In this document: positions 5,960 through 63,512 of the stretch, piece by piece
How the letters are laid out: each line of letters starts with the position of its first letter
Numbering within the stretch: position 1 is the stretch's first letter
Source of the DNA: an uncultured Gammaproteobacteria bacterium
GTDB taxonomy: Bacteria; Patescibacteriota; Microgenomatia; UBA1406; GWC2-37-13
Length of the DNA: 64,000 nucleotides
Direction of reading: 5' to 3'
NCBI GenBank assembly: GCA_964530235.1
Contig: CAZGYB010000004.1
Location: 10,668-74,667 of the forward strand
Notes under the pieces: generated by a model
Databases searched by the model: none
Told to the model about the DNA's origin: nothing
Seen by the model: only the letters and a program-made list of their open reading frames with translations
Made by a program: the position numbers and the translations under genes

Positions 5960-7144
5960 TTAACCCCCAATTTTAAACTCTACCACATCCCCGTCCTTCA
6001 TCACATAATCCCGTCCTGCGCTTACCACTTTTCCGAGTTCACGAGCCTTTGCCCATCCATCGCAGTTTACAAAATCTTCATAGGAGATAATATCAGCTTT
6101 AATGAATTTTTTCTCAAAATCTGTGTGGATTGTTCCGGCAGCTTGTGGCGAAAGAGTGCCTTTTTGTATAGTCCAGGCGCGTGCTTCTAGTGTTCCTGCG
6201 GTGAGAAACGAAATAAGTCCGAGAATTTCGTACGATTTTTTAATGAGTCGGTTGAGTCCGGTATCTTCAAGTTTATATTGATTCAAATACTCTTTTTGTT
6301 CGGGAGGGGAGAGTGCGAGAATATCATTTTCAAGTTTGGCGTTTAAATAAATGAAGTTATAATCGGTTGAAGTCGGCTGAGACGCACCTTCGTTAAAACT
6401 TCGTTGGGCAAGTCGGTTGGAATCGGTCCGATTAAAACTGGTTTCAACTGATTTTAACTTATCAAAGACTGATTGAATCTGTTTTTCCGTTTCGTTCTTT
6501 TTTTCAAGTTGTTCTTCGGAAACATTAAAGGCATAAATTACCGGTTTTATGGTGAGTAGATTCAGTTGTTTTACCATTATCTTTTGCTCGTCAGTTAAGA
6601 TGATATTTCGCGCCGGAATTCCTTTGTTTAACTGTTCCTCGAGTAAGGTAAGAAGTGTGGTAAGCTCGGTTTGACTTTTCACTTGTATTTTTGACTTTTC
6701 ACTTTTGCCTTTTGATTTTCCAATGGTTTCAAGATCTGCGAGAATAAGTTCGGCTTCAATTGTCTCTATATCACTTTTCGGATCAACCCGATTTGAAACA
6801 TGAATGACATTGCCGTCCTCAAAGAGCCGTACGACATGGACAATCGCGGAAACTTCACGGATATGGGACAGAAATTTATTTCCGAGACCTTCACCGACGG
6901 ATGCGCCTTTTACGATTCCTGCAATGTCATAAAATTCAACTACCGCGGGAACAATTTTTTCCGTTTTTACGATTTTGGCGAGCGCAGGAAGCCGTTCATC
7001 CGGCACTTCAACGATTCCGACATTCGGCTCGATCGTACAAAACGGATAATTCGCTGCGTCCGCAATCTGTTTTTTCAAAAGTGCGTTAAAAAGGGTTGAT
7101 TTGCCAACGTTTGGCAACCCTACAATGCCGATACTCAATTTCAT
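5960..7144 (-). CDS. ychF: redox-regulated/ribosome-binding ATPase YchF
   Basis: P-loop [34 protein letters not shown], and a C-terminal ...[37 protein letters not shown]... segment typical of YchF/OLA1. At 394 aa it includes a ~31-aa insert (see the repeat at 6361..6453). Confidence 0.9.
6361..6453. repeat. 93-nt palindromic in-frame insert within ychF
   Basis: The arms AATCGGTTGAA (6361-6371) and TTCAACTGATT (6443-6453, reverse complement AATCAGTTGAA) match 10/11. Inside are repeats of AAGTCGG and CTTCGTT and the palindrome AATCGGTCCGATT. The insert encodes ...[31 protein letters not shown]..., which I do not recall in other YchF proteins. Confidence 0.55.
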
Positions 7145-8714: not shown

Positions 8715-8832
8715 ATTTTTTGATTGTACATCTTTTGAAAAGATAAATATTAAAAAATAAACACATAGTACATGTAACTCGATAGTACCGTTACGCTATA
8801 GTAACTGTAACTATATAGTTACTTGTTAATAA

Positions 8833-9210
8833 TCAGAGAGGGATATCGTGTGGATCAATAATCTCATCTGCCTTTTCTGATCTGGTCCTGGCGAGACAGT
8901 AAGCATCGTAAATTCTCGCCTCCAATGCAGACCAAGTATCTGGATTCTCAAGATAAACCAGTTGGATGTATCGACCATGCATTTTTCTTGAGGGGGGAGT
9001 GATATTGACAGACTCTTGAAGTCGCTTATTCATATTGTTGCTTTTCCAGATCTGATAGCCCTTTATGTTTATCAATCCAAAATCAACTGTCTTGATAAGC
9101 ACGTCTGCATTTGCTAATAACGAACCCTCATTTTTTATGGAGATGGAAATAGTAAGATTTTCTTCGTTTATAATGGCACTGAATCTGGTTTTTTTCATAT
9201 TTATTTTCAT
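8833..9210 (-). CDS. small protein, possibly SpoVG-like
   Basis: 125-aa ORF. The pattern LANADVLIKTVDFGLINIKGYQIW...ITPPSRKMHGRYIQLVYLENPDTWSALEARIYDAY loosely parallels the SpoVG beta-rich core (AxAxV...V.V.....PS+K...). Confidence 0.3.
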   Translation of the reverse strand: MKINMKKTRFSAIINEENLTISISIKNEGSLLANADVLIKTVDFGLINIKGYQIWKSNNMNKRLQESVNITPPSRKMHGRYIQLVYLENPDTWSALEARIYDAYCLARTRSEKADEIIDPHDIPL

Positions 9211-9304
9211 AAATGGTAACTTCGGTCCTCATTACCTTTTCATGAGTCTTCTTGGTCACTCATAGCCCGTTTAGACCCAACAGACATGGGTTTCAACAAC
9301 TCCA

Positions 9305-9577
9305 CTAACAGCTCTTTTTTGTCTTTTTTTGAAAATGAGCGTAATTCTTGTGATTGATTGAGAGCATATAAGGTTTTTTTCTATCGAGCGGATAGTTGAT
9401 TTTCTTCAGGCTGTTGATGATTGTTGCAAGAATAGGAAAATCTCCAATCAAGGAGTAACACGGATTTTTACGATAAAACCTAAAAACAAAAGATAAGCTC
9501 GTTGATGGCTTCTTTTTGAATGTGTTGATAATCTGTAGACCGATGAGGTCCACATCCTGCATACTATGGCTTTTCAT
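9305..9577 (-). CDS. hypothetical small basic protein
   Basis: 90-aa ORF. Its ATG lies inside the stop region of the upstream 58-aa ORF, which suggests translational coupling. Confidence 0.3.
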   Translation of the reverse strand: MKSHSMQDVDLIGLQIINTFKKKPSTSLSFVFRFYRKNPCYSLIGDFPILATIINSLKKINYPLDRKKPYMLSINHKNYAHFQKKTKKSC

Positions 9578-9740
9578 ACTTTTGATGTGATGAAATTGGT
9601 AATGGTGAAACTACGTCTTGACCTTTTAAACTTGCTACAATATCTTCAAACAACTGTCGATATACTTCATAAACGCTTTCGTCGTCTGCAAGAACTGAGT
9701 CAAATTGATAATCCAAACTTATTTCTCTTGGCTTTCTCAT
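9564..9740 (-). CDS. hypothetical 58-aa protein (below the ORF-track cutoff)
   Basis: Hand translation gives MRKPREISLDYQFDSVLADDESVYEVYRQLFEDIVASLKGQDVVSPLPISSHQKYEKP*. It fills the gap between 9745..10002 and 9305..9577 and overlaps the next ATG by 14 nt. Confidence 0.3.
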   Translation of the reverse strand: MRKPREISLDYQFDSVLADDESVYEVYRQLFEDIVASLKGQDVVSPLPISSHQKYEKP

Positions 9741-9744
9741 GGTT

Positions 9745-10002
9745 TCAAATCCCCAGATGGATCCGCGTCTTCAGGGTCTTCAGAGCCTCAAAAAGATCCG
9801 AACTGATAACCTTATATTGGCCACTGAGATGAGCTTGAATGATGTTTTGTGCTTGAGAATATGGATCATCGAATACAAAAACATAAGATCGATCATTGAT
9901 TTTTTCTAGCCTTAACAGAGAGAGCTGCTTGGATGCAAGAAATAGCGTTGCGATATACAGATCCTTTATTGAGTATGTATTTGGTTTTGTATTGTCTTTC
10001 AT
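9745..10002 (-). CDS. DUF5659-like small protein
   Basis: 85 aa. YSIKDLYIATLFLASKQLSLLRLEKINDRSYVFVFDD...AQNIIQAHLSGQ resembles the DUF5659 family (common in CPR genomes and phages) as I recall it. Confidence 0.4.
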   Translation of the reverse strand: MKDNTKPNTYSIKDLYIATLFLASKQLSLLRLEKINDRSYVFVFDDPYSQAQNIIQAHLSGQYKVISSDLFEALKTLKTRIHLGI

Positions 10003-10396
10003 CTTTATTGCAATAGAACCGCTTGGATTGAAAGGGTTGCATTGCTGAACCCATAGAGATCACAAGCAAATTGCTCTGATTTACCTATGGGTTCCTGAAG
10101 ACTTGTTGCTTGAGTGCAGTGTCTTGAAGAGTATCCTTGTAAAAAAGGCTTATTTCAGCCTTACATATATATTTTAGACAATAAGATCAAGATTTATTAC
10201 TCGATATTTTATATAATGAGTTTCAGTTCGATCGACCTACAACCCTCTGGTTTTCCAGGTGGCATGGTTGAAATCCAGGTTATGGGACGAGAGCTCCTCG
10301 TCAAGCTTTCCATAACCTGGTCTTATCCCGAAAGGGATATGGGTAGATTCCGAAAGGAGTTTACCGGCTTGCGAGGAGCTTTTTTGTGGAGTATAT

Positions 10397-14548: not shown

Positions 14549-16423
14549 ATGTCACATATTACAGAAAAACCCGCTGTTCCGGTAAAAACAATTGAACAAC
14601 CAGGAATTCCAAGAACAAATGCACTAAATGAAAAAGCATTGTCCGATCAATTGTTAGCTGCAATGAGTTCGGATCGGATTAGTGCCGGGGGTAATTCACG
14701 GGATCTTTTACATGCTGTTGCAGGAGGTGGTGATAGGCCTGATGCAAATATTCAATCTGAAACTCCCGCAGAGTTAAGAAACAAACGGGTGGTGGGAGAG
14801 TTGCGATCACAGCTTGAGAATAAATACAAAGAGTCAAATGATCCAAAAGTAAAAAGCGCTTTGGAATATTTTTCCCAACCAAATCGCGAAAGGGGCAATC
14901 TTACTCCGCTTGATGAAATTGCCTCAATGTACTCATTACTAGAAAATGCAGATGAACAGGTGGTAACAGAACATGCATCCCGGGTTACTGAATTTGCATT
15001 TAATCAACAACTTGATAATCCCGAGGAATACGTTTCACATGGATTTGATCACACGTTAAACGTATTGACGCATTACCGGGAAATTATTGCAAATAATCCT
15101 CAATATATTGATACGATAGCAAAAAAATATGACATATCACAAAGTGAAGCACGATTTTTAGCGGATATGGTAGCGGTATATCATGATTTTGGGTATCCTG
15201 CTGCTGGTGCGAAGCAACTGGGAAAAGCCGTGCATGCACTTGAGGGAGCAGTTATTGCAGCTCGAGAGGATTTTGTTGGTTTACTACAAAATCCAAGTAT
15301 TCATATCCGACATGATTTTCGGGATGCAGTTTTGTATCATGGCGCCGATAAAGTTGAAGCAACATATGAGCGAAAAGTTCAGACGAAACAGGGAGAGATA
15401 CTCATGAATAGAGGACAAACAATTCGGTTGGTAACCCAGCTGGAGGAGAACCAAGCCGATTTAGAGGATGTTCGCGTTGAGGTTGAGGATAGTGACGCTA
15501 AAGATCGTATTATGAAACTTGCGAATGAACGGAAACTTCCGATAAATGCAGATAATATACGGGTAAGGGAAGGAAGTAGTGGACTTGGAGGAAGAAAGGT
15601 GGATCTGGAACAGAAAGGAGATGCTGCTTTGGGAATAGAATATAAGGAAGTAGAGGTTGATCAAGATCCGCTTCTTGCAATGATACGGATTGCCGATAAT
15701 ATGGATATGTTGGCTGAGCGGTTTAGCCCTGCCCAGCGTGAGCCTGCTTTTCAAGAGATATATCATCATTTAGGAGATAAGCGTGAACCGCAATGTCAAG
15801 CATATTATGAAATTCAGGGATTAGCAAAACAGGCACAAAAAGACGGTCAAGAAGCAGGTACTACCTCACTTCCAGACAGGGCTGCAATTGAAGCAAAACT
15901 AAAAGCAGTTGCGTCTTTGGATCCCAATGAAATTAAACTATTTTGCGATTCTTTTTTTGCCGAGCAAACATCAGGTAAACCTAAAACATTCAACGATTTG
16001 GAAAAGGCTTGGAAAATGCATGTAGCCGAGTCGATACTTAATCAGGAAAAATATAGAGATATGGATGTTCAAACAAGAGAAAAAGTTCTTGCAATGGCAA
16101 ATAAACAAACAGGGGAATCGTTTAGACATTTTGGTGGTTGCGAGGCGGTGACCGGCATTCAACTTGTTGACGGGAAAATAATTGTCGATGTCGATGCAAA
16201 AAAGTACGATGATTTATCGCAGACGTATGCCGATGAAAAAAGCAGTAATGGATCTGAAATTCAGGTACCGGTTGCAGATTACCAAATTTGGCGGATGTGG
16301 AGTGCGTTACAATGTGTAAAAGTACAAGCTGGATCAGAAAAGGGAATTCCAATTTTTGTACGAAAAATACAGGATGGAAATTCAGAAAAACCGGTTGTAT
16401 GGCTCAATCCTGAAACCCGCTGA
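14549..16423 (+). CDS. HD-domain phosphohydrolase-superfamily protein with long N- and C-terminal extensions
   Basis: Ordered HD-superfamily motifs: HGFDHTLNV, AVYHDFGYP, HALEGAVIA, VLYHGADK, IRIADNMD. Confidence 0.6.
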   Translation: MSHITEKPAVPVKTIEQPGIPRTNALNEKALSDQLLAAMSSDRISAGGNSRDLLHAVAGGGDRPDANIQSETPAELRNKRVVGELRSQLENKYKESNDPKVKSALEYFSQPNRERGNLTPLDEIASMYSLLENADEQVVTEHASRVTEFAFNQQLDNPEEYVSHGFDHTLNVLTHYREIIANNPQYIDTIAKKYDISQSEARFLADMVAVYHDFGYPAAGAKQLGKAVHALEGAVIAAREDFVGLLQNPSIHIRHDFRDAVLYHGADKVEATYERKVQTKQGEILMNRGQTIRLVTQLEENQADLEDVRVEVEDSDAKDRIMKLANERKLPINADNIRVREGSSGLGGRKVDLEQKGDAALGIEYKEVEVDQDPLLAMIRIADNMDMLAERFSPAQREPAFQEIYHHLGDKREPQCQAYYEIQGLAKQAQKDGQEAGTTSLPDRAAIEAKLKAVASLDPNEIKLFCDSFFAEQTSGKPKTFNDLEKAWKMHVAESILNQEKYRDMDVQTREKVLAMANKQTGESFRHFGGCEAVTGIQLVDGKIIVDVDAKKYDDLSQTYADEKSSNGSEIQVPVADYQIWRMWSALQCVKVQAGSEKGIPIFVRKIQDGNSEKPVVWLNPETR

Positions 16424-16430
16424 TTAAATC

Positions 16431-18629
16431 TTAATTGATTATTTCAAATTTCTGCCCTTTGACCGTGTATCGGTGCACCGGAATACCTTGATTTTGTATC
16501 ACGTCAAGTCGGGCATCATATACATTTGAATGTTCACCTGGATCATTATGATAGCCGATAAGAACGGGGATACCCTTTTCAGTTAATCGTTGAATAAATT
16601 GTATCATAGACTGCCAGGAAGAAGCGTCTTTAACATCAGTATCAAAATTATCAAGCATCAGCACTTTCGCTGAACCAAAAAGTGCATGGCTACCCGTTGC
16701 TGCAAGGGCATACCGTTTTCTGAAGTATGAATCGGTACTTGTCCAGTTGCCGAGTTCAAAGGCGTCAAGCTCCGCTTGAGAAAACAGTCCGGATTCATAC
16801 AGAAAAGTTCGAATTTGCAGTTCGCTCAGGCTTGGGTGGAACGAGGGGATCGGATCGTTGACAGAAACCCCTCCGCACCGTTCATAATGTACCGGATGTT
16901 CATCTCCGGTATGGAGATCTAAGATAGATCCGTCGCGATTTTTTTGAAGCGCAATGCCTCGGGGATGATTTATTCTGTCTGAAAGAGCACCAAGAATTCT
17001 GCTGAGTCCAGCATGCTGGGGAAGTTCAAGCAGTGTTACACCGGGGCGAAGGAGAAGCTCTGTATTGCGAAGTAGTATGTTGCCTTCGATGCCAAGACTG
17101 TAACCAGTAAAAAGCGCAGATCCGGCAGGTTCTGCCTGGAGTTTTTGTACCGCAGCTTCTATTTCCTCGGGTGAATACTTTCCCGCGAGTGCTTCGCAGT
17201 GCTGTTTCCATAACGCAGGAGTGCCAATGCTTAAGTCAAACATGCGTAAAAGTTCTCGGAATAAAATCAAGGAAGCTCGGCCTGCGTGGATATCAGATAA
17301 TTCGGAAAGATTCTCCGTATGATGACCTGCGACCATTGCAATAACTGCAGTCTCAGGCAGGTTTAAACCCGCTGCATTTGCAATGGCGGGAAGATACCGG
17401 CCCAATGCTGAGATAAAATGGCTGCCCAAGTGAAGTGTGTCGCCTGTTGGTCTAAAAGGGTTCGCACGAATGAGGGGTTGAAAATAAAGAGTAAGTGCGA
17501 TTGAAGAACCAAGTATAAATGACATCAATTGATAATTTCCTGAGAGCGCAAGCGCACCAGATATACTCAGAGTTGGCGCCATAGCTTCTTCTACCTGGGG
17601 AGGAATACCTTCTGCTTCAGCAAGCGCCCCTGCGATAGATTGGAGTTGTTTACTCAGGTCACCAGGAGTCAATCCATGCATGCGTGCATCAGACTTATAA
17701 CGTTCACTTAAATAATCTATTATTGGCTCAAGTCCGGCACCGGCCGTTTTTTGTGCACGCTTTTCATAGTATTCAGTGAGGGCTTCAGTGAGGATAAGTC
17801 CGGAAACCAGCAAAAAATTGAGACCATTAAAACGATTCGGCTGTTGAGTTTGAATTCGCGAAACAGTGAGACCTTCGTATAAACTTTGAATAAGTATCAT
17901 TACCCTTTCCATAAGTCTTCGTTTTACCGTGTCTTTTTCAAAAGTATCAACTATTTTAGGGTCGACAAATTTTCGGAGTATATCAAAATCCGGACCTTGA
18001 AGACGGTATTCTGTTCCGGATGGATAAGAGCTTAAGAAACGTTGTATGACTCGTTCAAGCGGTTTGCGTGTTGACTGGGTGAGTTGAGGTTTTTCAGGCA
18101 GAAGCACTGCTTTACAGCGGGGATCAACAGTGAGATGGCCGAGTCCAATATTTGGCGGTGCAACACGGTATCTTTGGTTTGTTTCCAGATGTTTTTTAAG
18201 ATCTTGTTCAGAGAGTATTATAATACTCGTATCTCGCATTTGAAATAGGTGTGTCATCAGCCAGCCGGATGTATTGTAGTCCAAAGCAACAGAAAAAACA
18301 TCAAACTCCCCCCGTTCATCCAATCCGGCTCCTTCATATGCTGCAGCAAAATGAGGAGGTGGATATTTTTTTTGCTTAAATTCTTGAACTAGCGGTTCGA
18401 AGTGCTTATACAGCGTTCCGTTGATATTGTATCGATCGGGATGTTCTAAGTCAGTGGGTTGGCAGGTGAAAGGAGCAAGCTGCAGGCCAACTCTTTGAAA
18501 TGCGTATCCTCCTCCAAAAGCAGGGTGAACTTGTATTAAACAAAGAGCAACCGGAGATAAGTTTGGCTCACGTTCGGGTACCGGTTGTTGTTCCGTTGTC
18601 ATACAAGGGCAAGGCGCATAGTATACCAA
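16431..18629 (-). CDS. large hypothetical protein with a degenerate ABC-ATPase-like C-terminal domain
   Basis: 732-aa ORF; the start is probably MTTEQQ, 9 codons in. The C-terminal ~220 aa show ABC NBD spacing with degenerate motifs (see findings). Confidence 0.55.
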   Translation of the reverse strand: MVYYAPCPCMTTEQQPVPEREPNLSPVALCLIQVHPAFGGGYAFQRVGLQLAPFTCQPTDLEHPDRYNINGTLYKHFEPLVQEFKQKKYPPPHFAAAYEGAGLDERGEFDVFSVALDYNTSGWLMTHLFQMRDTSIIILSEQDLKKHLETNQRYRVAPPNIGLGHLTVDPRCKAVLLPEKPQLTQSTRKPLERVIQRFLSSYPSGTEYRLQGPDFDILRKFVDPKIVDTFEKDTVKRRLMERVMILIQSLYEGLTVSRIQTQQPNRFNGLNFLLVSGLILTEALTEYYEKRAQKTAGAGLEPIIDYLSERYKSDARMHGLTPGDLSKQLQSIAGALAEAEGIPPQVEEAMAPTLSISGALALSGNYQLMSFILGSSIALTLYFQPLIRANPFRPTGDTLHLGSHFISALGRYLPAIANAAGLNLPETAVIAMVAGHHTENLSELSDIHAGRASLILFRELLRMFDLSIGTPALWKQHCEALAGKYSPEEIEAAVQKLQAEPAGSALFTGYSLGIEGNILLRNTELLLRPGVTLLELPQHAGLSRILGALSDRINHPRGIALQKNRDGSILDLHTGDEHPVHYERCGGVSVNDPIPSFHPSLSELQIRTFLYESGLFSQAELDAFELGNWTSTDSYFRKRYALAATGSHALFGSAKVLMLDNFDTDVKDASSWQSMIQFIQRLTEKGIPVLIGYHNDPGEHSNVYDARLDVIQNQGIPVHRYTVKGQKFEIIN

Positions 18630-21215: not shown

Positions 21216-22169
21216 TTAAAGGATGAGCGAGAGGACAAGAATGATTGCGGGAATAAGAATTGCAGCAAAAGCGGGCACTCCGCTTACCGGAACGGGTGGT
21301 TTTGTTGGCTGTGAAGTCGGATATGGCGTAGCCTGAGCAATATATACTTTGGTTGGAGTTGGATATGGCGTGTATGTTGGGTATGGTGTTGCTGTGGGCG
21401 CGACAGTTGGTGGGCGCGGGGTGACTGTTGCAGTAGGCTGGATAGTCGGCACCGGGGTATTTGTAGGTTGCGGAGTTGGTGTTTGAGTTGGTGTTGGCGT
21501 TCGTGTTGGTGTTGGAGTCCGGGTAGGCGTCGGCGTTCTTGTTGGTGTTGGCGTTCGCGTTGGTGTTGGAGTCCGGGTAGGCGTTGGCGTTCTTGTTGGA
21601 GTGGGGGTTGCAGTGCTTATTGGAACAGGCGTATTGGTTGGCTGGGGTGTTGGCGTTCGCGTTGGTGTTGGAGTCCGGGTAGGCGTTGGAGTCCGTGTTG
21701 GGGTTGGAGTTCGTGTTGGTGTGGGTGTATTGGTGAGTCGGGGGGTCGGAGTTGCGCTGGGCCGTGGGGATGGTGTTGCTGTTGGCCGGTTTGTTGGTTG
21801 AGGTGTTGCAGTGGGCTCTTGCGGGTTGGAGCACTCTTTGTCGCAGACGGTGTCGTCGCATTTGAGAAAACATGACTGTCCGCATCCGGTAATATCTGAC
21901 GCATATCGTTTGTAGTTTGTGCACCACCTTACCGTTCCGTCATCACAGGTGTCATAGTATCCATTATCATTACTTGGACAGCCTGGGTCGCTTTCGCAGG
22001 TTGCACGGACTTTTTCGGTTTGCACCGGTTTTTGAATCGCCCTGTTTGTTACAAAAATAAAGAGAAGCCCTGAAAGTATGGTAGTAACAAATACGGCGAT
22101 AGGAATAAATCGCTGCTTATTCATTTTGCTTCGTGTTAAACTCAAAGATCGGGAGCGCTCCAACAACAT
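21216..22169 (-). CDS. membrane-anchored Cys-rich surface protein with a (TPTPTR)n linker and a C-terminal hydrophobic anchor
   Basis: The likely start is MNKQRF at 22124, where ATGAATAA overlaps the upstream stop. The protein has an N-terminal TM, a Cys-rich module ([26 protein letters not shown]...), about 15 TPTPTR repeats, and a C-terminal [24 protein letters not shown]. Confidence 0.6.
21490..21597. repeat. tandem 54-nt unit x2 (each unit is three 18-nt TPTPTR units); a third degenerate copy starts at 21646
   Basis: GGTGTTGGCGTTCGYGTTGGTGTTGGAGTCCGGGTAGGCGTYGGCGTTCTTGTT is repeated head to tail. Confidence 0.85.
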
Positions 22170-54973: not shown

Positions 54974-55667
54974 GAGATCCTCCTAAGATCTTCGAACGTT
55001 GGTTGTTGTGTATGATGACCCCTACAGGGTACCCACATACGGGCTGGATGAACGTTTCGATCCACGCGCAGGGGAAAACAGAAGTTTTCCACTATGTGTG
55101 GATCTTCACCCGCCTTAGGCGGGTGAACCTTTTAGCCGATCTTTGTTTTTATCTGCAACCAGAAAATCCGGTTGAGATTACTCACACTGATCATTGGCCA
55201 AAAGGGAATGAGTTCAAGCCGTTTACAACATCCTGTCTGTCACCCTTTGTCCGCCATAGCTTTATGCGTAGGCGGAGCCCATACCTCCATACCTTGTTGT
55301 AGACTTTTATCCACCAGATCTTACCGTTCGCCTTACTTACTATTTGTAGCTCGGCTCACGGAGCGATTCTCGGCGGATAAACGCGAGTATTTCTGTCTCT
55401 TTCGAGCCAGAAACTCGCTTTTACCTAAACCCAAAATTTTAAAGAGCCCTTCGTTACTTCGTTCCTCAGGGTAAACTCCCTTTGGACAAAGCTCGTAAGG
55501 CAGGGTGCCGTATGGTACCCTGGATGATTCGTCCTTTTTATTCCTTAACCAGCTATTGGTTAAGAGACTCCTCATCACGGTTTTATCCCGGACGAGGATT
55601 GGTAGAAGCTATTTCTACCCCTCGCGGGGGATAACTTGGGATTTAAACCCCAAGGAAATACGGTTAA

Positions 55668-55705
55668 AATCAGTTGCAATCAGTTGCAATCAGTTGCAAT
55701 CGGTT
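55668..55705. repeat. tandem 10-mer (AATCAGTTGC) x3.5
   Basis: cagttgcaat occurs three times exactly (55671-55700) and is followed by cggtt. It marks the GC-rich/AT-rich transition. Confidence 0.9.
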
Positions 55706-56164
55706 TAACAATAATTCTTTGAAGTTATAAACAATAAATTGTTTAGTTATTTTCTTTCTCTCGTCTGATTGTTAAAGTGCTCTTCGCTTCGCTCAGAGTA
55801 AACCCTTCGGTTTATTCTCAGGGTAAACTACCCTCAATATTTAATACCTATAATACAAAGATTTATAGATAAAATAATGGTGAACTGCATGGAATATTTG
55901 CTTATAGAAAGGGGGTAGGGCGCAGTATTTTCTGATAATAAAACTATTCAATTTCATATTCCTATAGTATATCATACAAAGGCTTATAAGTCAAGTATCG
56001 GGCAAGAATAATGAAGAAGCTCTTGTTGTTAAAGAGCAGAAGATATTTACCCTTATAGTATATATATATTATTCTAAAAGTCAACCATAGTGGTTGTCAG
56101 AATAATATATCAAAAGTTATACACAGCTCATAAACAATGACCGAAAAAGAATATATATAAGTAT

Positions 56165-56217: not shown

Positions 56218-56976
56218 TTACTTTCTCCGTGTCATGGTTAATTTAAGTCCTGCGCCGATCATACCGATCTGTCCGGCAAGGAGGACAAGTCCCATTTCAG
56301 GCCCGGCCTTTGGTGTTGCCTTTGCGCCAATGACCTGTTTTTCTACACAAATCTGTGCGGTATCTTCATCAGATACATTTCCGTTGTATGCTTGAGCGCG
56401 GTTTACCATACAGAACAGCCCTTTGTCAGCGGGCATTTTGTCCTGAGGGTAAAGCTGCATTTTAAGTTGATACGTTTTTTCTTCATCCGCCGCAAACGAA
56501 CCGGCATCGAAGGTAATGGTTCGATTTGTAGCATCGAATGTTCCCGGACCTTCAACCGGATCGATATAATTTGGAACAAAGTCTTTGACCGTTACATTTG
56601 AAAGGGTTGTGTTTGATGTATTTTTTACTTTTAGTCGAAACAGTACCTGTCCTCCCGGTGAATAGCGTACATCAGCAGGTGAGAGGTTGTCGACATATTC
56701 ATAGGAAACAACACCACCTTTGGTTTGGGTTCCCCCTGGTTTTGCAACGAGTTTGTCAATAACAATACTTTGAGTTGATGGAGTTCCGCCGTATTGACCA
56801 TATTGTCCGTACTGACCAGAGTCAGCGAGAACTCGTGGAGCGTGTAACGTGTAACGTGTAACGTAAAAAAAAGCAACTAAGAACAAAATTATTTTTGCGA
56901 TTTGCGTTATGCGTTTCGCATTATGCATTTTATATTTCATAGTGGGTATTATACTACAGGACTTATCATTTGTCAA
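56218..56976 (-). CDS. DUF11-like surface protein with a C-terminal sorting-signal-like anchor (true start ATG 56940, MKYKMHNAK)
   Basis: PGGQVLFRLKVKNTSNTTLSNVTVKDFVPNYIDPVEGPG fits the DUF11 repeat. The C-terminus is TPKAGPE, a hydrophobic helix, then TRRK. The TTG 'start' at 56976 is actually the -35 box of its promoter. Confidence 0.6.
   Translation of the reverse strand: MTNDKSCSIIPTMKYKMHNAKRITQIAKIILFLVAFFYVTRYTLHAPRVLADSGQYGQYGQYGGTPSTQSIVIDKLVAKPGGTQTKGGVVSYEYVDNLSPADVRYSPGGQVLFRLKVKNTSNTTLSNVTVKDFVPNYIDPVEGPGTFDATNRTITFDAGSFAADEEKTYQLKMQLYPQDKMPADKGLFCMVNRAQAYNGNVSDEDTAQICVEKQVIGAKATPKAGPEMGLVLLAGQIGMIGAGLKLTMTRRK
56841..56863. repeat. left arm of a perfect 23-bp inverted repeat (GTGTAAC heptads)
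   Basis: CGTGTAACGTGTAACGTGTAACG is the exact reverse complement of 57040-57062. It lies inside the coding sequence and encodes VTRYTLH. Confidence 0.95.
56948..56976 (-). promoter_or_regulatory. consensus sigma70 promoter giving a leaderless or near-leaderless mRNA
   Basis: On the minus strand: TTGACA, a 17-nt spacer, TATAAT, then 7 nt (ACCCACT) before the ATG at 56940. Confidence 0.7.
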
Positions 56977-57039
56977 CTATAGGACATATCTCAAAACGCG
57001 AAGCGTGTAACGCGAGGCGTTTTGTGATAAAATAATCCG

Positions 57040-57062
57040 CGTTACACGTTACACGTTACACG
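57040..57062. repeat. right arm of the perfect 23-bp inverted repeat (GTTACAC heptads)
   Basis: CGTTACACGTTACACGTTACACG ends 2 nt before the ATG at 57065. Confidence 0.95.
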
Positions 57063-57064
57063 TT

Positions 57065-57706
57065 ATGCGACTCAATGCTAAAGAGATGCGGACTGTTGAT
57101 GAAGCGGAAGCGAAACAGCAGCTTGCCAATCTCAAACGCCACCCAATTTTCTTTATCCTTGAAAATATTTATGATACCTATAATATCGGCGGTTTATTCC
57201 GCTTAGCAGATGCAATTGGGGTGAGCAAGATATATTTATGCGGTGAAACCGAGATTCCTCCGAATTCGCGAATCAAAAAGGCATCGATCGGGACGTATAA
57301 GGTTGTGCCGTGGGAGTATAAACGGAGTTCAGAAGAAGCAGTATTGGAATTACGAAAAAAGTTCATAGTTGATAGTTCGCAGTTGGCGGAACTAAAAAAG
57401 TCACAAAGTACCAACTATAAACGGCAAACTAAAAACTACGACCCTCCAACTACAAACTCTTCTTTACAGGTAATCGCTATTGAACAGTCTCCGCAATCCG
57501 TGCCATATACCCAGATTGACTATCGCTTTCCGGTTGCACTCATTATGGGGAATGAGACATACGGCGTGCTTCCTGAAACGATCAAGTTGGCAGACCATAT
57601 TGCAGAAATCCCGATGTGGGGGATCAATAAGAGTTTGAACGTAATCGTATCCGCCTCAATTGTGAGTTATTGGATTATGAATAAGTTTAGAGTCGGTAGT
57701 TTATAG
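57065..57706 (+). CDS. SpoU/TrmH-family RNA 2'-O-methyltransferase
   Basis: ILENIYDTYNIGGLFRLADAIGV, VALIMGNETYGV and IPMWG.NKSLNVIVSASIVSY are the three SpoU motifs. The gene contains a 31-aa insert. Confidence 0.8.
   Translation: MRLNAKEMRTVDEAEAKQQLANLKRHPIFFILENIYDTYNIGGLFRLADAIGVSKIYLCGETEIPPNSRIKKASIGTYKVVPWEYKRSSEEAVLELRKKFIVDSSQLAELKKSQSTNYKRQTKNYDPPTTNSSLQVIAIEQSPQSVPYTQIDYRFPVALIMGNETYGVLPETIKLADHIAEIPMWGINKSLNVIVSASIVSYWIMNKFRVGSL
57368..57460. repeat. 93-nt heptad-periodic palindromic in-frame insert in the trmH-like gene
   Basis: The left arm is GTTGATAGTTCGCAGTTGG. The right arm is AACTnnn heptads (CCAACTATAAACGGCAAACTAAAAACTAC...CCAACTACAAACTCT). It is homologous to 62165..62239. 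Confidence 0.75.
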
Positions 57707-57715
57707 TTTACAGTT
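57695..57715. repeat. left inverted-repeat arm (nnnAGTT heptads) flanking the four-helix-bundle gene
   Basis: GGTAGTTTATAGTTTACAGTT matches the reverse complement of 58082-58102 (GGTAGTTTGTAGTTTGAAGTT) at 18/21 positions. It overlaps the last codons and stop of the trmH-like gene. Confidence 0.8.
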
Positions 57716-57728
57716 AAAATATATAAAC

Positions 57729-58076
57729 ATGAGCACTTATAAAGACTTGGTAGTTTGGAAGAAAAGTATGCAGTTATGTGAAGAAGTGTATAAGGTTACT
57801 AAAAAATTTCCCAAAGAAGAACAGTATGGGTTGAGTTCACAGATAAGAAGAGCGGTAATTGCGATTCCATCGAATATTGCAGAAGGTCAAAAACGTTCTT
57901 ATAAGAAAGAATTTATTCAATTTCTACGGATTTCTCTTGGATCAGGAGCCGAACTTGAAACACAGCTGGAAATAGCGAGGAGGATTGGATATATAAATGA
58001 GGAAAGTTTTTTTAAACTAACAGCGCTAATTGTTGAAATTATGAAAATGCTCCAAAGCCTAATAAGATCACTTTAG
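57729..58076 (+). CDS. four-helix-bundle protein (23S rRNA intervening-sequence protein / Avd-like family)
   Basis: YKDLVVWKKSMQLCEEVYKVTKKFPKEEQYGLSSQIRRAVIAIPSNIAEGQKR....F.QFLRISLGSGAELETQLEIA is the hallmark of this family. Confidence 0.85.
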   Translation: MSTYKDLVVWKKSMQLCEEVYKVTKKFPKEEQYGLSSQIRRAVIAIPSNIAEGQKRSYKKEFIQFLRISLGSGAELETQLEIARRIGYINEESFFKLTALIVEIMKMLQSLIRSL

Positions 58077-58081
58077 CTTTT

Positions 58082-58109
58082 AACTTCAAACTACAAACTA
58101 CCAACTATC
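58082..58109. repeat. right inverted-repeat arm (four AACTnnn heptads)
   Basis: AACTTCA AACTACA AACTACC AACTATC, ending 8-10 nt before the 3' end of tRNA-Thr. Confidence 0.8.
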
Positions 58110-58119
58110 AGCTATTCGG

Positions 58120-58191
58120 AGCCCAAAGCGAGAATCGAACTCGCGGTCTTATTCTTACCAAGAATACGTTTTACCACTAAACTATTTGGGC
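58120..58191 (-). tRNA. tRNA-Thr (anticodon GGU)
   Basis: Hand-folded 72-nt cloverleaf. Acceptor stem GCCCAAA/TTTGGGC and D stem GTTT/AAAC. Anticodon stem TATTC/GAATA with loop TTGGTAA. Variable loop AGACC, T arm GCGAG-TTCGATT-CTCGC, discriminator T. CCA is not fully encoded. Confidence 0.85.
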
Positions 58192-61915: not shown

Positions 61916-62482
61916 TCAATACCGCAGAGGAACGAGTTCGCCGTTTTTTTCTTCAAACAACTTTGCACTTTGTTCAACAGCCCTTTGGGTAAAGAGAATT
62001 CCGTTGAGATGGTCGCATTCATGCTGGATAATGGTTGCCTTGAATCCCGAAAACCAGCGGGATATGGTTTTCCCTTCAAGATCCTGGTATGAAAGGAATA
62101 CCTTAAAACTGCGTGAAACAGGACCCCAGATACGAGGAATAGAAAGACAACCCTCAAGTTTTGTAGAGTTAGGAGTTGGTAGTTTATAGTTTTTAGTTTG
62201 CAGTTTATTTCTGTGAACTACTAACTGCGAACTGTCAACATTTTTTAATATTTTAGGATTAATAAAAACCTCTGTTTTTCCTTTGGGTGTAGGTTTCATA
62301 ATAAATAATGTGAGACTAATCCCTACCTGTGGCGCAGCCAGACCAACTCCTTGAGGGTCAACCTGAGCAATAAGCGTTTCTTCCATATCAAATACTAGCT
62401 TTTTAATCTTTCGGTTGATTTCGGTTACGGGTAATGCGGGAATAGTAAGCACTTTCTGGGGTATTTGAACAATCTTAAGCAT
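61916..62482 (-). CDS. def: peptide deformylase
   Basis: The three Def motifs are present: GVGLAAPQVG, EGCLSIP and HECDHLNG. A ~25-aa insert lies just before EGCLS. Confidence 0.9.
   Translation of the reverse strand: MLKIVQIPQKVLTIPALPVTEINRKIKKLVFDMEETLIAQVDPQGVGLAAPQVGISLTLFIMKPTPKGKTEVFINPKILKNVDSSQLVVHRNKLQTKNYKLPTPNSTKLEGCLSIPRIWGPVSRSFKVFLSYQDLEGKTISRWFSGFKATIIQHECDHLNGILFTQRAVEQSAKLFEEKNGELVPLRY
62165..62239. repeat. 75-nt heptad-periodic palindromic in-frame insert in def
   Basis: In the coding sense it reads GTTGACAGTTCGCAGTTAG...CTGCAAACTAAAAACTATAAACTACCAACTCCTAACTCT and encodes VDSSQLVVHRNKLQTKNYKLPTPNS. The arms are mutually complementary heptads. Confidence 0.75.
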
Positions 62483-62597: not shown

Positions 62598-63512
62598 ATG
62601 AAATTATCATTAGCAATCGCTACTTATAACGAGGAGAAACACATTGCAGACTGCATTGCTTCATGCGAAGATCTCGTTGATGAGATTATCGTGGTTGATG
62701 GATCATCATCCGATAAAACTCGTGAAATTGCAAAATCGCTTGGTGCACAAGTGATTACAACCGAAAATCGTGTGATGTTTCACACCAATAAACAAAAAGC
62801 AATGGATCTGGCGACCGGCGATTGGATTTTACAGCTTGATGCAGATGAACGGGTAACCCCGGATCTTGCACAGGAAATAAAAAAAGTGATGCTCCTGTCA
62901 AAGGAAGAATTAGAAGCATATCAAATAAATCTTCCGGAAAGAAAACTTTTTATCCGTCATCAACAGATTACAAATCCTAAACTCCAAACCCTAAACCACA
63001 GTCAGACGTTCAATTCCCAATATAATGCCTTTTATATTCCACGCCTGAATTATTTTTTGGGTAAATTTCTTCGCTATGGGGGAGTTTATCCGGACGGAGT
63101 AATCCGTTTAGTGCGCAAAGGAAAAGCATTTTTGCCGTGTAAAGATGTTCATGAACTGATGCGGGTTGAGGGAACAATAGGGTGGCTGCAAAATCCGCTC
63201 CTGCATTATGACTCGCCTACGTTCCTGAGATACTTGGAACGAAATAAACGATATATAAAGCTGTTAACCGGTGAAATAAAAAGCAATATGCAAAGCGTCA
63301 AAATTAAAAATAATGGTCACAAGCTAATAGTTTTTAAAGAAGAAATTTTATTGGGTATTAACTGGTTATTTGTGAAACCCATTGTTTGGTTTTTCATGAC
63401 AACATTCCGTCATAAAGGGATTTTGGATGGCTGGAGGGGAGTGGTATTTTCTTTCTTTTCCGCCCTTCGTTTCCCCCGGGCATATATTTGCTATAAACTG
63501 AAAAAAATATAG
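62598..63512 (+). CDS. family 2 glycosyltransferase
   Basis: LSLAIATYNEEKHI, IIVVDGSSSDKT and LQLDADE (DxD) form the typical GT2 N-terminal domain. Confidence 0.8.
   Translation: MKLSLAIATYNEEKHIADCIASCEDLVDEIIVVDGSSSDKTREIAKSLGAQVITTENRVMFHTNKQKAMDLATGDWILQLDADERVTPDLAQEIKKVMLLSKEELEAYQINLPERKLFIRHQQITNPKLQTLNHSQTFNSQYNAFYIPRLNYFLGKFLRYGGVYPDGVIRLVRKGKAFLPCKDVHELMRVEGTIGWLQNPLLHYDSPTFLRYLERNKRYIKLLTGEIKSNMQSVKIKNNGHKLIVFKEEILLGINWLFVKPIVWFFMTTFRHKGILDGWRGVVFSFFSALRFPRAYICYKLKKI

Follow-up and report, generated by a model that had tools for sequence, protein, structure and literature searches.

In-frame, ORF-less heptad hairpin elements in the SpoU and def genes of a CPR bacterium and their likeness to the stem of an IVS-type PF05635 cassette

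Intervening sequences (IVSs) of the S23p type, known from the 23S and 16S rRNA genes of Leptospira, Coxiella and Brucella, have stood as an unexplained peculiarity since around 1990. Other short repeats of bacterial genomes have features in common with the elements described here: Rickettsia palindromic elements (RPEs) occur in dozens of copies scattered over the genome, their families having conserved consensus sequences and conserved peptides, and the STRR of cyanobacteria are tandem heptanucleotide repeats. The protein family PF05635 (23S_rRNA_IVP, for 23S rRNA intervening-sequence protein; TIGR02436, “four helix bundle protein”) is very common in bacteria and has, to our knowledge, no known function outside diversity-generating retroelements (DGRs).

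In Coxiella, the IVS is a stem of 28-bp terminal repeats whose loop carries the S23p ORF; RNase III cuts it out of the transcript and the ends are not religated, and tandem GACAGAT heptamers are present in variable number (PMC4990558). Insertions in CPR rRNA genes contain 23S_rRNA_IVP ORFs (10.1101/2024.02.27.582315), and S23p-type IVSs, of which short forms without an ORF exist, are regarded as selfish (PMC4990558; 10.1101/2024.02.27.582315). PF05635 proteins resemble Avd (PMC10053308). RPEs are palindromic repeats of ~100-150 bp, lying in frame in unrelated housekeeping genes at fold-compatible positions (PMC10969869). In Beggiatoaceae and cyanobacteria, 7-nt TAACTGA units are repeated in tandem; these repeats abound in the genome, are mostly intergenic and sometimes overlap or enter ORFs. 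Read in one orientation they have a stop in each of the three frames, and a mobile origin has been discussed for them; they are in essence direct repeats that precede genes, one inverted case being reported, and have no associated gene (PMC4679880). MITEs, REP/REPIN and Correia-type sequences are short non-coding hairpin repeats whose intragenic copies can give in-frame fusions (PMC10969869; see also PMC3116915).

In the 64,000-nt stretch of Roizmanbacteria (CPR) DNA analysed here (the window), a heptad hairpin element without an ORF is found in frame within the gene of a SpoU/TrmH-family RNA 2'-O-methyltransferase (57065..57706, + strand; PF00588, E=6e-28). Its core insert at 57368-57460, where the earlier note had recognized an in-frame heptad element and where the sequences that it quoted do lie, has 93 nt, a multiple of 3, and encodes the peptide VDSSQLAELKKSQSTNYKRQTKNYDPPTTNS. 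The full palindromic unit (~57356-57466, 111 nt, + strand) is a bit wider than the span first reported, with nnnAGTT heptads in the 5' arm (~57357-57386) and AACTnnn heptads in the 3' arm (~57410-57462). A similar in-frame, ORF-less element lies in def, encoding peptide deformylase (61916..62482, - strand; PF01327, E=1e-40), where the hairpin unit spans 86 nt (62160..62245, - strand) and the core insert 75 nt, again a multiple of 3 (62165-62239; peptide VDSSQLVVHRNKLQTKNYKLPTPNS), with edges that are ambiguous, a long and variable loop being present in every Roizmanbacteria def protein. Both copies have the same orientation relative to the host gene and are open in the host frame only, in agreement with the shared orientation, frame and lengths already noted; in SpoU, heptads in frame 0 read AAG/CAG while the out-of-frame ones read TAG.

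When the two inserts were aligned, 74% of all columns were identical, and a block of 44 nt had 36/44 identical positions; heptad periodicity inflates such scores when the null is made of mononucleotide shuffles. Matches to AACTNNNAACTNNNAACT with at most one mismatch numbered 17 against 0.61 expected, all of them inside 57360-58113 and 62167-62240, and those to GTTGAYAGTTCGCAGTT with at most three mismatches numbered 6 against 0.32. The heptad structure goes beyond chance, and the homology of the SpoU and def segments, proposed on first reading, is confirmed.

The imperfect hairpin described in the earlier note held up in part. The antisense strand of the SpoU insert folds well below shuffles (-32.7 kcal/mol, z=-3.8), and so do both strands of the def insert (z=-2.9 sense, z=-4.6 antisense), whereas the SpoU insert as sense-strand RNA (-14.7 kcal/mol, z=-0.75) folds no better than shuffles. 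With DNA parameters, z lies between -1.1 and -3.3 for the inserts. From these shuffle tests, the in-gene hairpin is real but degenerate. Antisense folding is stronger than sense folding in 22/34 SpoU inserts, an asymmetry that is not significant.

Structure comparison located both inserts in loops. The TrmH protein has ~34 additional residues between aligned blocks when compared with PDB 1zjr, and residues 82-108 of the def protein correspond to only 6 residues in 1ws0, the element sitting in the loop before EGCLS. Residues 106-131 of the SpoU protein and 85-120 of the def protein have AF2 pLDDT<50; both inserts are predicted to be disordered loops inside otherwise confident folds, which agrees with the idea of a surface loop raised before.

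Directly downstream of SpoU lies a gene-carrying cassette of IVS type (57684..58113, + strand). Its left arm (57684-57719, TAGTTnn heptads) contains the SpoU stop codon and is followed by a gene encoding a four-helix-bundle, Avd-like protein (57729-58076; PF05635 E=4.5e-43; TIGR02436 140.9 bits), then by a right arm (58078-58113, AACTnnn heptads) which ends 5 nt from the adjoining tRNA-Thr(GGT) (58118..58191, - strand). The arms, which are inverted relative to each other, consist of 7-mers in tandem that keep a 4-nt core (TAGTT/AACTA type in the window); they are 36 nt long and 81% complementary, and make the longest inverted repeat of the 64-kb window. They match the SpoU and def inserts, with the same heptad type found at three places within 5 kb. 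Judged from sequence, this match to the stem of an IVS-type PF05635 cassette points to a closer affiliation for the inserts than the RPEs do.

Like the S23p IVS, the cassette holds a PF05635 ORF in the loop of a terminal inverted-repeat stem with tandem heptads, and the SpoU and def inserts, having no ORF, resemble the short IVSs. Unlike the S23p IVS, it is not placed in a 23S/16S rRNA helix; it stands between SpoU and tRNA-Thr, and no rRNA genes were found in the window. The elements described here are intergenic, tRNA-adjacent or overlapping gene ends, and the ORF-less form lies in coding sequence and is translated in frame. A further difference is that the cassettes have arms with stops in all frames, for which no description was found in the IVS literature searched. 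The cassette protein is also homologous to the Avd protein of DGRs (PF22296 E=4.8e-11). Nonetheless, its identification as a DGR Avd was rejected, as NF033474 gave 40.6 bits against an equivalog cut-off of 80 and the genes within 10 kb on either side of SpoU include no reverse-transcriptase domain.

The same architecture recurs outside the window. Inverted heptad arrays enclose the PF05635 gene at 9/9 Roizmanbacteria loci, and tandem 7-8-mers in inverted arrays do so for 81% of 72 independent metagenome genes compared to 0.6% of 310 shifted controls (inverted-repeat score threshold >=14). Similarity between PF05635 proteins tracks that between their arms (Mantel rho=0.29, p=0.0005). The arms stop all 3 inward-reading frames in 53/63 and 54/63 cassettes versus 24/63 for the outward direction, with a stop density of 0.144 inward and 0.094 outward (p=3e-7). 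None of 89 cassettes examined lies inside an rRNA gene (0/80 in the metagenomes; the nearest 16S start, in L124, is 2 kb away), hence the link to IVSs rests on the protein family and the architecture. tRNA-Asn is found at 58-83 nt from 6/80 metagenome cassettes, and a scan of viral contigs yielded no relatives of the cassette. A specific linkage between PF05635 and SpoU was considered and dropped: all 9/9 cassettes of the SpoU-centred loci are within ~1 kb of SpoU but 0/80 of the unbiased metagenome loci are, and adjacency thus reflects local hotspots and sampling rather than a functional link.

These data bear on whether the inserts are true MITE- or RPE-type elements, themselves non-autonomous and moved in trans by a transposase whose gene lies elsewhere in the genome, for example one of IS200/IS605 or RAYT-like type acting on hairpins, with the PF05635 association being incidental. 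Such an origin would fit inserts that sit in frame in permissive loops as RPEs do (PMC10969869), the patchy distribution among orthologues and the near-identical copies in different genes of one genome (L085, below). Yet an incidental association agrees poorly with the excess over shifted controls and with the covariation of gene and arms, and the only gene-carrying relative encodes PF05635, not a known transposase. Nor was a transposase family present among the genes called within 10 kb on either side of SpoU. Inspection revealed no direct repeat flanking the inserts or the cassette, and in def a net insertion and a loop replacement are indistinguishable. In contrast to MITEs, REP/REPIN and Correia-type repeats, neither target-site duplications nor a parent IS or RAYT were seen, and the copy number was not high; the arms are tandem heptads of varying number rather than unique, defined terminal inverted repeats. 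We consider this explanation unlikely.

The RPE-like behaviour pointed out in the earlier note is nevertheless evident, the inserts being hairpin-forming segments of 75-111 nt that lie in frame in protein genes, within predicted disordered loops. Membership in the RPEs, which that note did not claim, is not supported here: in contrast to RPEs, three AGTT-type sites only are found in ~68 kb, all within 5 kb and built of degenerate heptads in tandem, different lineages have different inserts, these are tied to a PF05635 cassette, and the host belongs to the CPR and not to Rickettsiales. Sequence homology to RPE-1 to RPE-10 is unlikely given the heptad build and the CPR host.

Among relatives, the SpoU loop is a hotspot, with 0-71 extra residues and unrelated hairpins across 69 Roizmanbacteria orthologues. 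About 25 of the 69 have a loop of only 4-10 aa, the remainder carry unrelated inserts, and at least 18 gains or losses of the loop state are needed on the tree. No single ancestral segment is common to these orthologues, and the claim that the element was inserted rather than ancestral is supported. In the closest def relatives, L083 and L085, the loop is 33 nt shorter, has no heptads and is thus empty of the element. Searching for other copies, which had been proposed before, recovered the arms around the adjacent PF05635 gene as well as orthologous copies in two relatives: the def element is common to the window and L084 at the DNA level, and the SpoU element has an orthologous copy in L082, which also carries the same PF05635 gene and left arm.

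Similarity also extends across genes. The SpoU insert of L082 and the def insert of the window are identical at 41/46 positions across different genes and genomes, and in L085 the arrays of the SpoU loop and of a GT2 glycosyltransferase loop share 40/43 positions within one genome, the former being one-armed. The SpoU insert of L063 has ~30 nt in common with its own cassette arm and, in general, a SpoU insert has more 8-mers in common with the cassette arms next to it than with those of other genomes (permutation p=0.005). When 1.5 Mb were scanned under strict hairpin criteria for further heptad hairpins within ORFs, the SpoU loop was essentially the only hit, the cut-off being one that passes over degenerate copies, those in the window included; in-gene hairpins therefore appear to be confined to a small number of permissive sites.

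Among tandem repeats of these genomes, no period is commoner than 7, with 418 arrays where Markov shuffles have 105, and head-to-tail 7-nt units were recovered here by TRF and by period scans, as in the TAACTGA and STRR repeats. Perhaps replication slippage in the AT-rich, low-complexity DNA of the loops created and expanded the arrays where they now stand, their likeness being due to convergent composition and shared periodicity. Slippage has already been discussed as the origin of the heptamer excess (PMC4679880); the abundance of period 7, the one-armed arrays (the L085 SpoU loop and the GT2 gene of the window) and the variable number of repeats would all follow from it. However, slippage does not produce an inverted second arm, and here, unlike in TAACTGA repeats, inverted pairs make stems round one gene family and hairpin copies lie in frame inside genes. 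Variable positions are shared as well, as the comparisons of L082 with the window, within L085 and within L063 indicate, and it has been partly shown that this sharing exceeds a periodicity-preserving null. The excess of third-position conservation described below is likewise unexpected in freely slipping DNA. In our opinion, slippage alone is very unlikely to account for the inserts.

At third codon positions, identity is higher in the inserts than in their flanks, both in SpoU (24/31 vs 90/182, p=0.006) and in def (15/22 vs 64/163, p=0.012). Shared inserts have third-position identities of 0.57-0.92 and their flanks of 0.34-0.55, with the same direction in 10/10 pairs, all picked by insert similarity and hence subject to ascertainment bias; a younger age of the insert or gene conversion could mimic constraint. 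Codon differences in the inserts comprise 3 synonymous and 10 non-synonymous ones, and conservation at position 3 equals that at positions 1 and 2. The flanks follow a normal codon-position pattern, and amino-acid identity of the insert is below that of the flanks in most pairs. The shared inserts are kept as nucleotide sequence rather than as protein. It could still be argued that the insert is a normal loop of the protein, specific to the lineage and under selection for its peptide, for instance as an interaction surface, the DNA periodicity being a by-product, since the reading frame is preserved across lineages differing at ~24% of residues. The codon pattern just described runs against selection on the peptide, as do the pLDDT values below 50 and the hypervariability of the loop across orthologues, and we regard such selection as highly improbable.

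Conservation independent of codon position would also be expected of a structure selected by the host, be it an entry site for RNase III or another RNase, a pause in translation, an antisense transcript or an array bound by the PF05635 protein, rather than of selfish DNA. The stronger folding of the antisense strand is in line with this, and so is the presence of heptad inverted repeats that bracket the SpoU/DUF11 promoter region. The latter belong to a second heptad type at 56841..57065, which consists of two arrays and a degenerate third. The first array, (CGTGTAA)3.4 at 56841-56864, falls in the 5' part of the DUF11 coding sequence, where it is read in frame as YVTRYTLH, and the second, (CGTTACA)3.7 at 57040-57065, is in the SpoU leader; as a pair they are 23 nt long and 100% complementary, and flank the divergent SpoU/DUF11 promoter region. 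The degenerate array (56995-57014) pairs with the right, CGTTACA-type arm, and the whole region folds with -90.4 kcal/mol (z=-7.9). In relatives, a PF05635 cassette with ACGT-type arms occupies this position. A host-selected structure is harder to reconcile with the orthologues, about a third of which have no insert while others have unrelated sequences, or with a SpoU sense-strand structure no better than shuffles. We find it quite unlikely for the in-gene inserts.

We favour the explanation that the inserts are heptad stem elements of IVS type, lacking an ORF, that were copied locally into loops which tolerate them, and give it a probability of roughly 0.6. Accepting this, the 93-nt SpoU and 75-nt def segments would be ORF-less copies of a stem that, when complete, flanks a PF05635 gene. 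Such stems may be copied to other sites over short distances of a few kb, recombination or template switching at hairpin-forming arrays being a more probable route than a transposase; of the signs of mobility looked for, neither target-site duplications nor a transposase were seen, and the three AGTT-type sites of the ~68 kb are all within 5 kb. Inside a gene, a copy would be expected to survive only if its length keeps the frame, if the heptads falling in frame have lost TAG (here AAG/CAG) and if it lands in a disordered surface loop. Once fixed, it would be inherited vertically, as the copies that the window shares with L082 and with L084 suggest, and kept as nucleic acid, not as peptide; the translated insert peptide is most likely a tolerated passenger. 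Direct descent of the SpoU insert from the neighbouring cassette was considered as well. TAGTT-type cassettes of the metagenomes match it equally well or better, so that the window cassette is not the unique best match and the neighbour is no more than a candidate source. The match of the inserts to the stems around PF05635 genes suggests that stem-loop elements known from rRNA genes also settle in protein-coding genes.

A broader and rather doubtful proposal may be added. S23p IVSs might be one habitat only of widespread PF05635 stem-loop cassettes with heptad arms and stops in every inward frame, cassettes and ORF-less stems spreading locally through CPR genomes near tRNAs, in intergenic regions and in in-frame loops, while an Avd-like PF05635 pentamer might recognise the 7-nt register and help to maintain or copy the arms. 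If this is true, the PF05635 family would gain a first function and the bacterial excess of heptanucleotide repeats would be explained. Independently of this proposal, the findings supply a concrete hypothesis for the over-representation of 7-nt repeats. The recurrence outside rRNA of a unit of gene plus stem, with all-frame stop arms and with bare stems in housekeeping genes, makes IVSs a testable class of selfish elements and offers an origin for lineage-specific disordered loops of CPR proteins. Caution is also advisable in CPR gene annotation and phylogenetics, because hypervariable in-frame inserts at fixed loops are likely to represent element DNA and not protein evolution. In the literature searched, no paper connects PF05635 cassettes that lie outside rRNA with heptad arms or with in-frame inserts of CPR genes; coverage was incomplete, which makes this weak evidence.

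Finally, the one-armed heptad array of the window, CAAATCC TAAACTC CAAACCC TAAACCA (62965..62997, + strand), lies in frame in the GT2 glycosyltransferase gene and has an orthologous array in L085.

The SpoU/TrmH-family methyltransferase gene (57065-57706, + strand) and the peptide deformylase gene def (61916-62482, - strand) each carry an in-frame, ORF-less heptad segment, 93 nt long at 57368-57460 (+) and 75 nt long at 62165-62239 (-), respectively. The earlier note had placed and described both features correctly, and the homology it proposed is confirmed by 74% column identity in an alignment and by the host-frame translation VDSSQL...QTKNY...NS in both genes. In structure alignments, SpoU has about 34 residues more than the solved TrmH structures, between conserved blocks, and def residues 82-108 lie opposite 6 residues in 1ws0, directly before the EGCLS motif. 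The heptad build is far beyond chance: AACTNNNAACTNNNAACT with at most one mismatch has 17 matches against 0.61 expected, all in 57360-58113 and 62167-62240, and a period-7 scan gave a signal at just a handful of sites in 64 kb. AlphaFold models bore out the loop location considered earlier: residues 106-131 of SpoU and 85-120 of def form loops with pLDDT<50 between confident elements.

The hairpin that had been proposed is real but degenerate. It held for the def insert (z=-2.9 sense, z=-4.6 antisense) and for the antisense strand of the SpoU insert (-32.7 kcal/mol, z=-3.8), but not for the SpoU sense RNA, which folds much less well and not above shuffles (z=-0.75); with DNA parameters, z ranged from -1.1 to -3.3. 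Folding of both strands gave hairpin units that fold better antisense at 57356-57466 (SpoU) and 62160-62245 (def). Among 34 SpoU inserts, 22 folded better antisense to the host gene, a non-significant excess; the Roizmanbacteria locus L031 is one example (-45.9 antisense vs -27.5 sense), and the same tendency was named for L045, L072 and L033. Each insert has only one of six frames open, that of its host, and heptads that bring their xAG triplet into frame 0 have AAG or CAG there, whereas those out of frame have TAG.

A third site of AGTT/AACT heptads in the window lies on either side of a 115-aa gene at 57729-58076 (+), assigned to PF05635 (23S_rRNA_IVP, E=4.5e-43) and to TIGR02436, "four helix bundle protein"; a profile search made its product a distant relative of the Avd protein of diversity-generating retroelements (DGR), with a score under the Avd cut-off. 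Its two 36-nt arms (left 57684-57719, right 58078-58113), 81% complementary, are the longest inverted repeat of the window; the left one contains the SpoU stop codon and the right one stops 5 nt short of tRNA-Thr (58118-58191). These arms can be aligned to the in-gene inserts, for example at 27/32 positions between the right arm and the def insert.

Among known systems, the S23p-type rRNA intervening sequence (IVS) comes closest. The Coxiella IVS holds a PF05635 ORF in the loop of a 28-bp terminal-inverted-repeat stem that is cut by RNase III, has tandem GACAGAT heptamers in strain-variable number before the ORF, and was termed selfish DNA of unknown origin by its authors (PMC4990558). 23S_rRNA_IVP ORFs also occur in CPR rRNA insertions (10.1101/2024.02.27.582315) and wedged amid cas genes (PMC3936711). 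Both the architecture and the family relationship of the window cassette are established; it differs from the IVS in lying outside rRNA, and we thus call it IVS-type and not an IVS. Rickettsia palindromic elements (RPEs), to which the earlier note had likened the inserts, are palindromes that sit in frame in housekeeping genes, at positions the protein fold can accommodate (PMC10969869). The in-gene copies resemble them in all these respects but are few and local, lack a family consensus and are built of heptads. The RPE-like reading is supported in a sharpened form, in which the SpoU and def inserts are the stem of an IVS-type PF05635 cassette without its ORF. TAACTGA heptamer repeats (PMC4679880) share the 7-nt unit and all-frame stops with the arms, yet these lie in direct orientation and have no gene associated with them. 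In the literature, which was partially covered, no account was found of heptad-armed PF05635 cassettes outside rRNA or of in-frame hairpin inserts in CPR genes.

The cassettes form a class. By tblastn, PF05635 genes were found in 9 SpoU-centred loci, with inverted heptad arrays on both sides in 9/9 and a unit that varies by genome (AGTTnnn, TAGGTTn, nnAACGT, CATTAAA, ACATnAA and others). The SpoU bias was removed with 80 PF05635 loci drawn from metagenomes, of which 72 genes were analysable: an inverted repeat score of at least 14 was reached around 81% of them, whereas among 310 shifted control intervals the share was 0.6%. Their arms are tandem 7-8-mers, most with a TAG core, and they stop all three frames inward in 53/63 and 54/63 cassettes vs 24/63 outward, at a stop density of 0.144 inward vs 0.094 outward (p=3e-7). 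Protein similarity goes with arm similarity (Mantel rho=0.29, p=0.0005), so that gene and arms evolve as one unit. Two cassettes less than about 1 kb apart were found both in L157 (2087-2434 and 3001-3348) and in L116 (1835-2176 and 3001-3348), where the arms are of different types (TAGAAAn and TAGCTTn), so that arm type is tied to the cassette and not to the genome. None of the 80 metagenome loci had SpoU nearby or the cassette inside an rRNA gene; 6 (L086-L089, L091, L118) have it 58-83 nt upstream of tRNA-Asn, and tRNA-adjacent spacers may be preferred sites. Some PF05635 genes of genome loci are apparently decayed, with an in-frame TGA where others have Trp in L011 (8693-9028) and a product cut to 92 aa in L063 (1693-1980), in keeping with the reductive evolution described for the S23p ORF of Coxiella (PMC4990558). 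The commonest tandem-repeat period in Roizmanbacteria loci is 7 (418 arrays vs 105 Markov-shuffled), and periods 6, 9 and 12 have similar real/shuffled ratios, as expected for coding repeats.

Judging from the names carried by homologues, the host is a Roizmanbacteria-like CPR bacterium. We surveyed the SpoU loop, bounded by ...EAIxEL and xIIAVEQ, in 69 orthologues out of 80 genome loci, and it proved a hotspot of turnover, 4 to 71 residues long. About 25 of the 69 have the basal 4-10 residues; in the others the loop is filled by unrelated inserts, of which many have a period-7 score >0.5 and some are plain strong hairpins (to -58 kcal/mol); no common ancestral segment was seen, and insert presence and absence require at least 18 changes on a neighbour-joining tree. 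The window shares both the insert and the downstream PF05635 gene with its nearest relative, L082 (76% aa identity). The L082 SpoU insert matches the window def insert at 41/46 positions, closer than the window SpoU insert does, which argues for one element family spanning genes and genomes. The def insert is common to L084 at the DNA level; in the closest relatives for def, L083 and L085, the loop is 33 nt shorter and free of heptads. L085, syntenic with the window, has no PF05635 gene, and its SpoU-to-tRNA-Thr gap holds an ORF-less hairpin of a different heptad type (-30.9 kcal/mol).

Sharing of 8-mers between SpoU-loop inserts and adjacent cassette arms is much higher within than between genomes (permutation p=0.005), with 26 in common in the window, 36 in L071 and 38 in L063, and the likeness in L070 follows the same pattern. 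Near-identical copies occur in one genome in L085, where arrays in the SpoU loop (gene 16055-16648, -) and in a GT2 gene about 7 kb off (9046-9978, -) are identical at 40/43 positions; the window GT2 glycosyltransferase array (62965-62997), one-armed and in frame (NPKLQTLNHSQ), is orthologous to the latter. In a stricter control, the window cassette shared first place among matches to the def insert, but several metagenome TAGTT-type cassettes match the SpoU insert as well as or better than the window cassette, which limits the claim of same-genome copying for the window. The AGTT-type copies found in about 68 kb all fall within 5 kb of one another.

Conservation is at the nucleotide level. 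Between the window and L082 SpoU genes, third codon positions are identical at 24/31 in the insert vs 90/182 in the flanks (Fisher p=0.006), which are near saturation, and no such difference is seen at positions 1+2; the insert codons show 3 synonymous vs 10 non-synonymous differences. For def vs L084, the third-position counts are 15/22 in the insert vs 64/163 in the flanks (p=0.012). Third-position identity exceeded that of the flanks in 10/10 pairs sharing a SpoU insert, non-heptad hairpins included (0.57-0.92 vs 0.34-0.55), pairs that were picked by insert similarity, and 8/10 were significant singly; amino-acid identity of the insert was below that of the flanks in most. The inserts thus do not evolve as protein: either there is constraint on the nucleic acid, or, compared with the genes that host them, the inserts are younger or have been homogenised. 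Because neither a transposase nor a target-site duplication was seen, local copying probably takes place through recombination at the hairpin-forming arrays, or template switching there. Probably only frame-compatible, TAG-free copies in disordered loops survive, with the peptide as a passenger.

On either side of the SpoU/DUF11 promoter region lie the arms of a second heptad type, (CGTGTAA)3.4 (56841-56864) and (CGTTACA)n (57040-57065), which make up a perfect inverted repeat of 23 nt. The first array lies in frame in the N-terminal part of the DUF11 protein (gene 56218-56940, -), reading YVTRYTLH right after a hydrophobic signal-like stretch; DUF11 orthologues of L070, L071, L063 and L013 have heptad arrays at the equivalent place, and the syntenic L085 protein has ordinary sequence there. 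A consensus sigma-70 promoter (TTGACA-N17-TATAAT, ~56947-56990, -) directed at the DUF11/CLIPPER-domain gene is conserved nearly base for base upstream of the orthologue in many Roizmanbacteria loci, and the extended -10 TGATAAAAT lies upstream of SpoU or, in loci with an inserted cassette, upstream of the PF05635 gene.

Elsewhere in the window, an ORF-poor stretch of about 730 nt (54985-55715) in a 1.2-kb gene-free gap has 46-52% GC vs about 33% nearby. It folds well beyond shuffles (z=-10.3 at -281.7 kcal/mol on the minus strand, z=-9.1 on the plus strand), matches no Rfam family save a spurious miRNA match on the (AATCAGTTGC)x3.8 repeat at 55668-55705, and has partial blastn matches in five other Roizmanbacteria loci (L003, L049, L020, L012, L033). 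This makes the stretch a candidate for a large structured RNA without a family. A LOOT RNA (Rfam RF03000) was found at 10234-10365 (+), with 64.4 bits vs a gathering score of 46.4. Tandem repeats include a TTTGACT-type 7/20-nt array at 6670-6720, a 17-nt ATAGTAACTGTAACTCT array in an AT-rich spacer at 8765-8823, and a long GTTGGN hexamer/54-nt array at 21475-21722, which is probably a repetitive protein.
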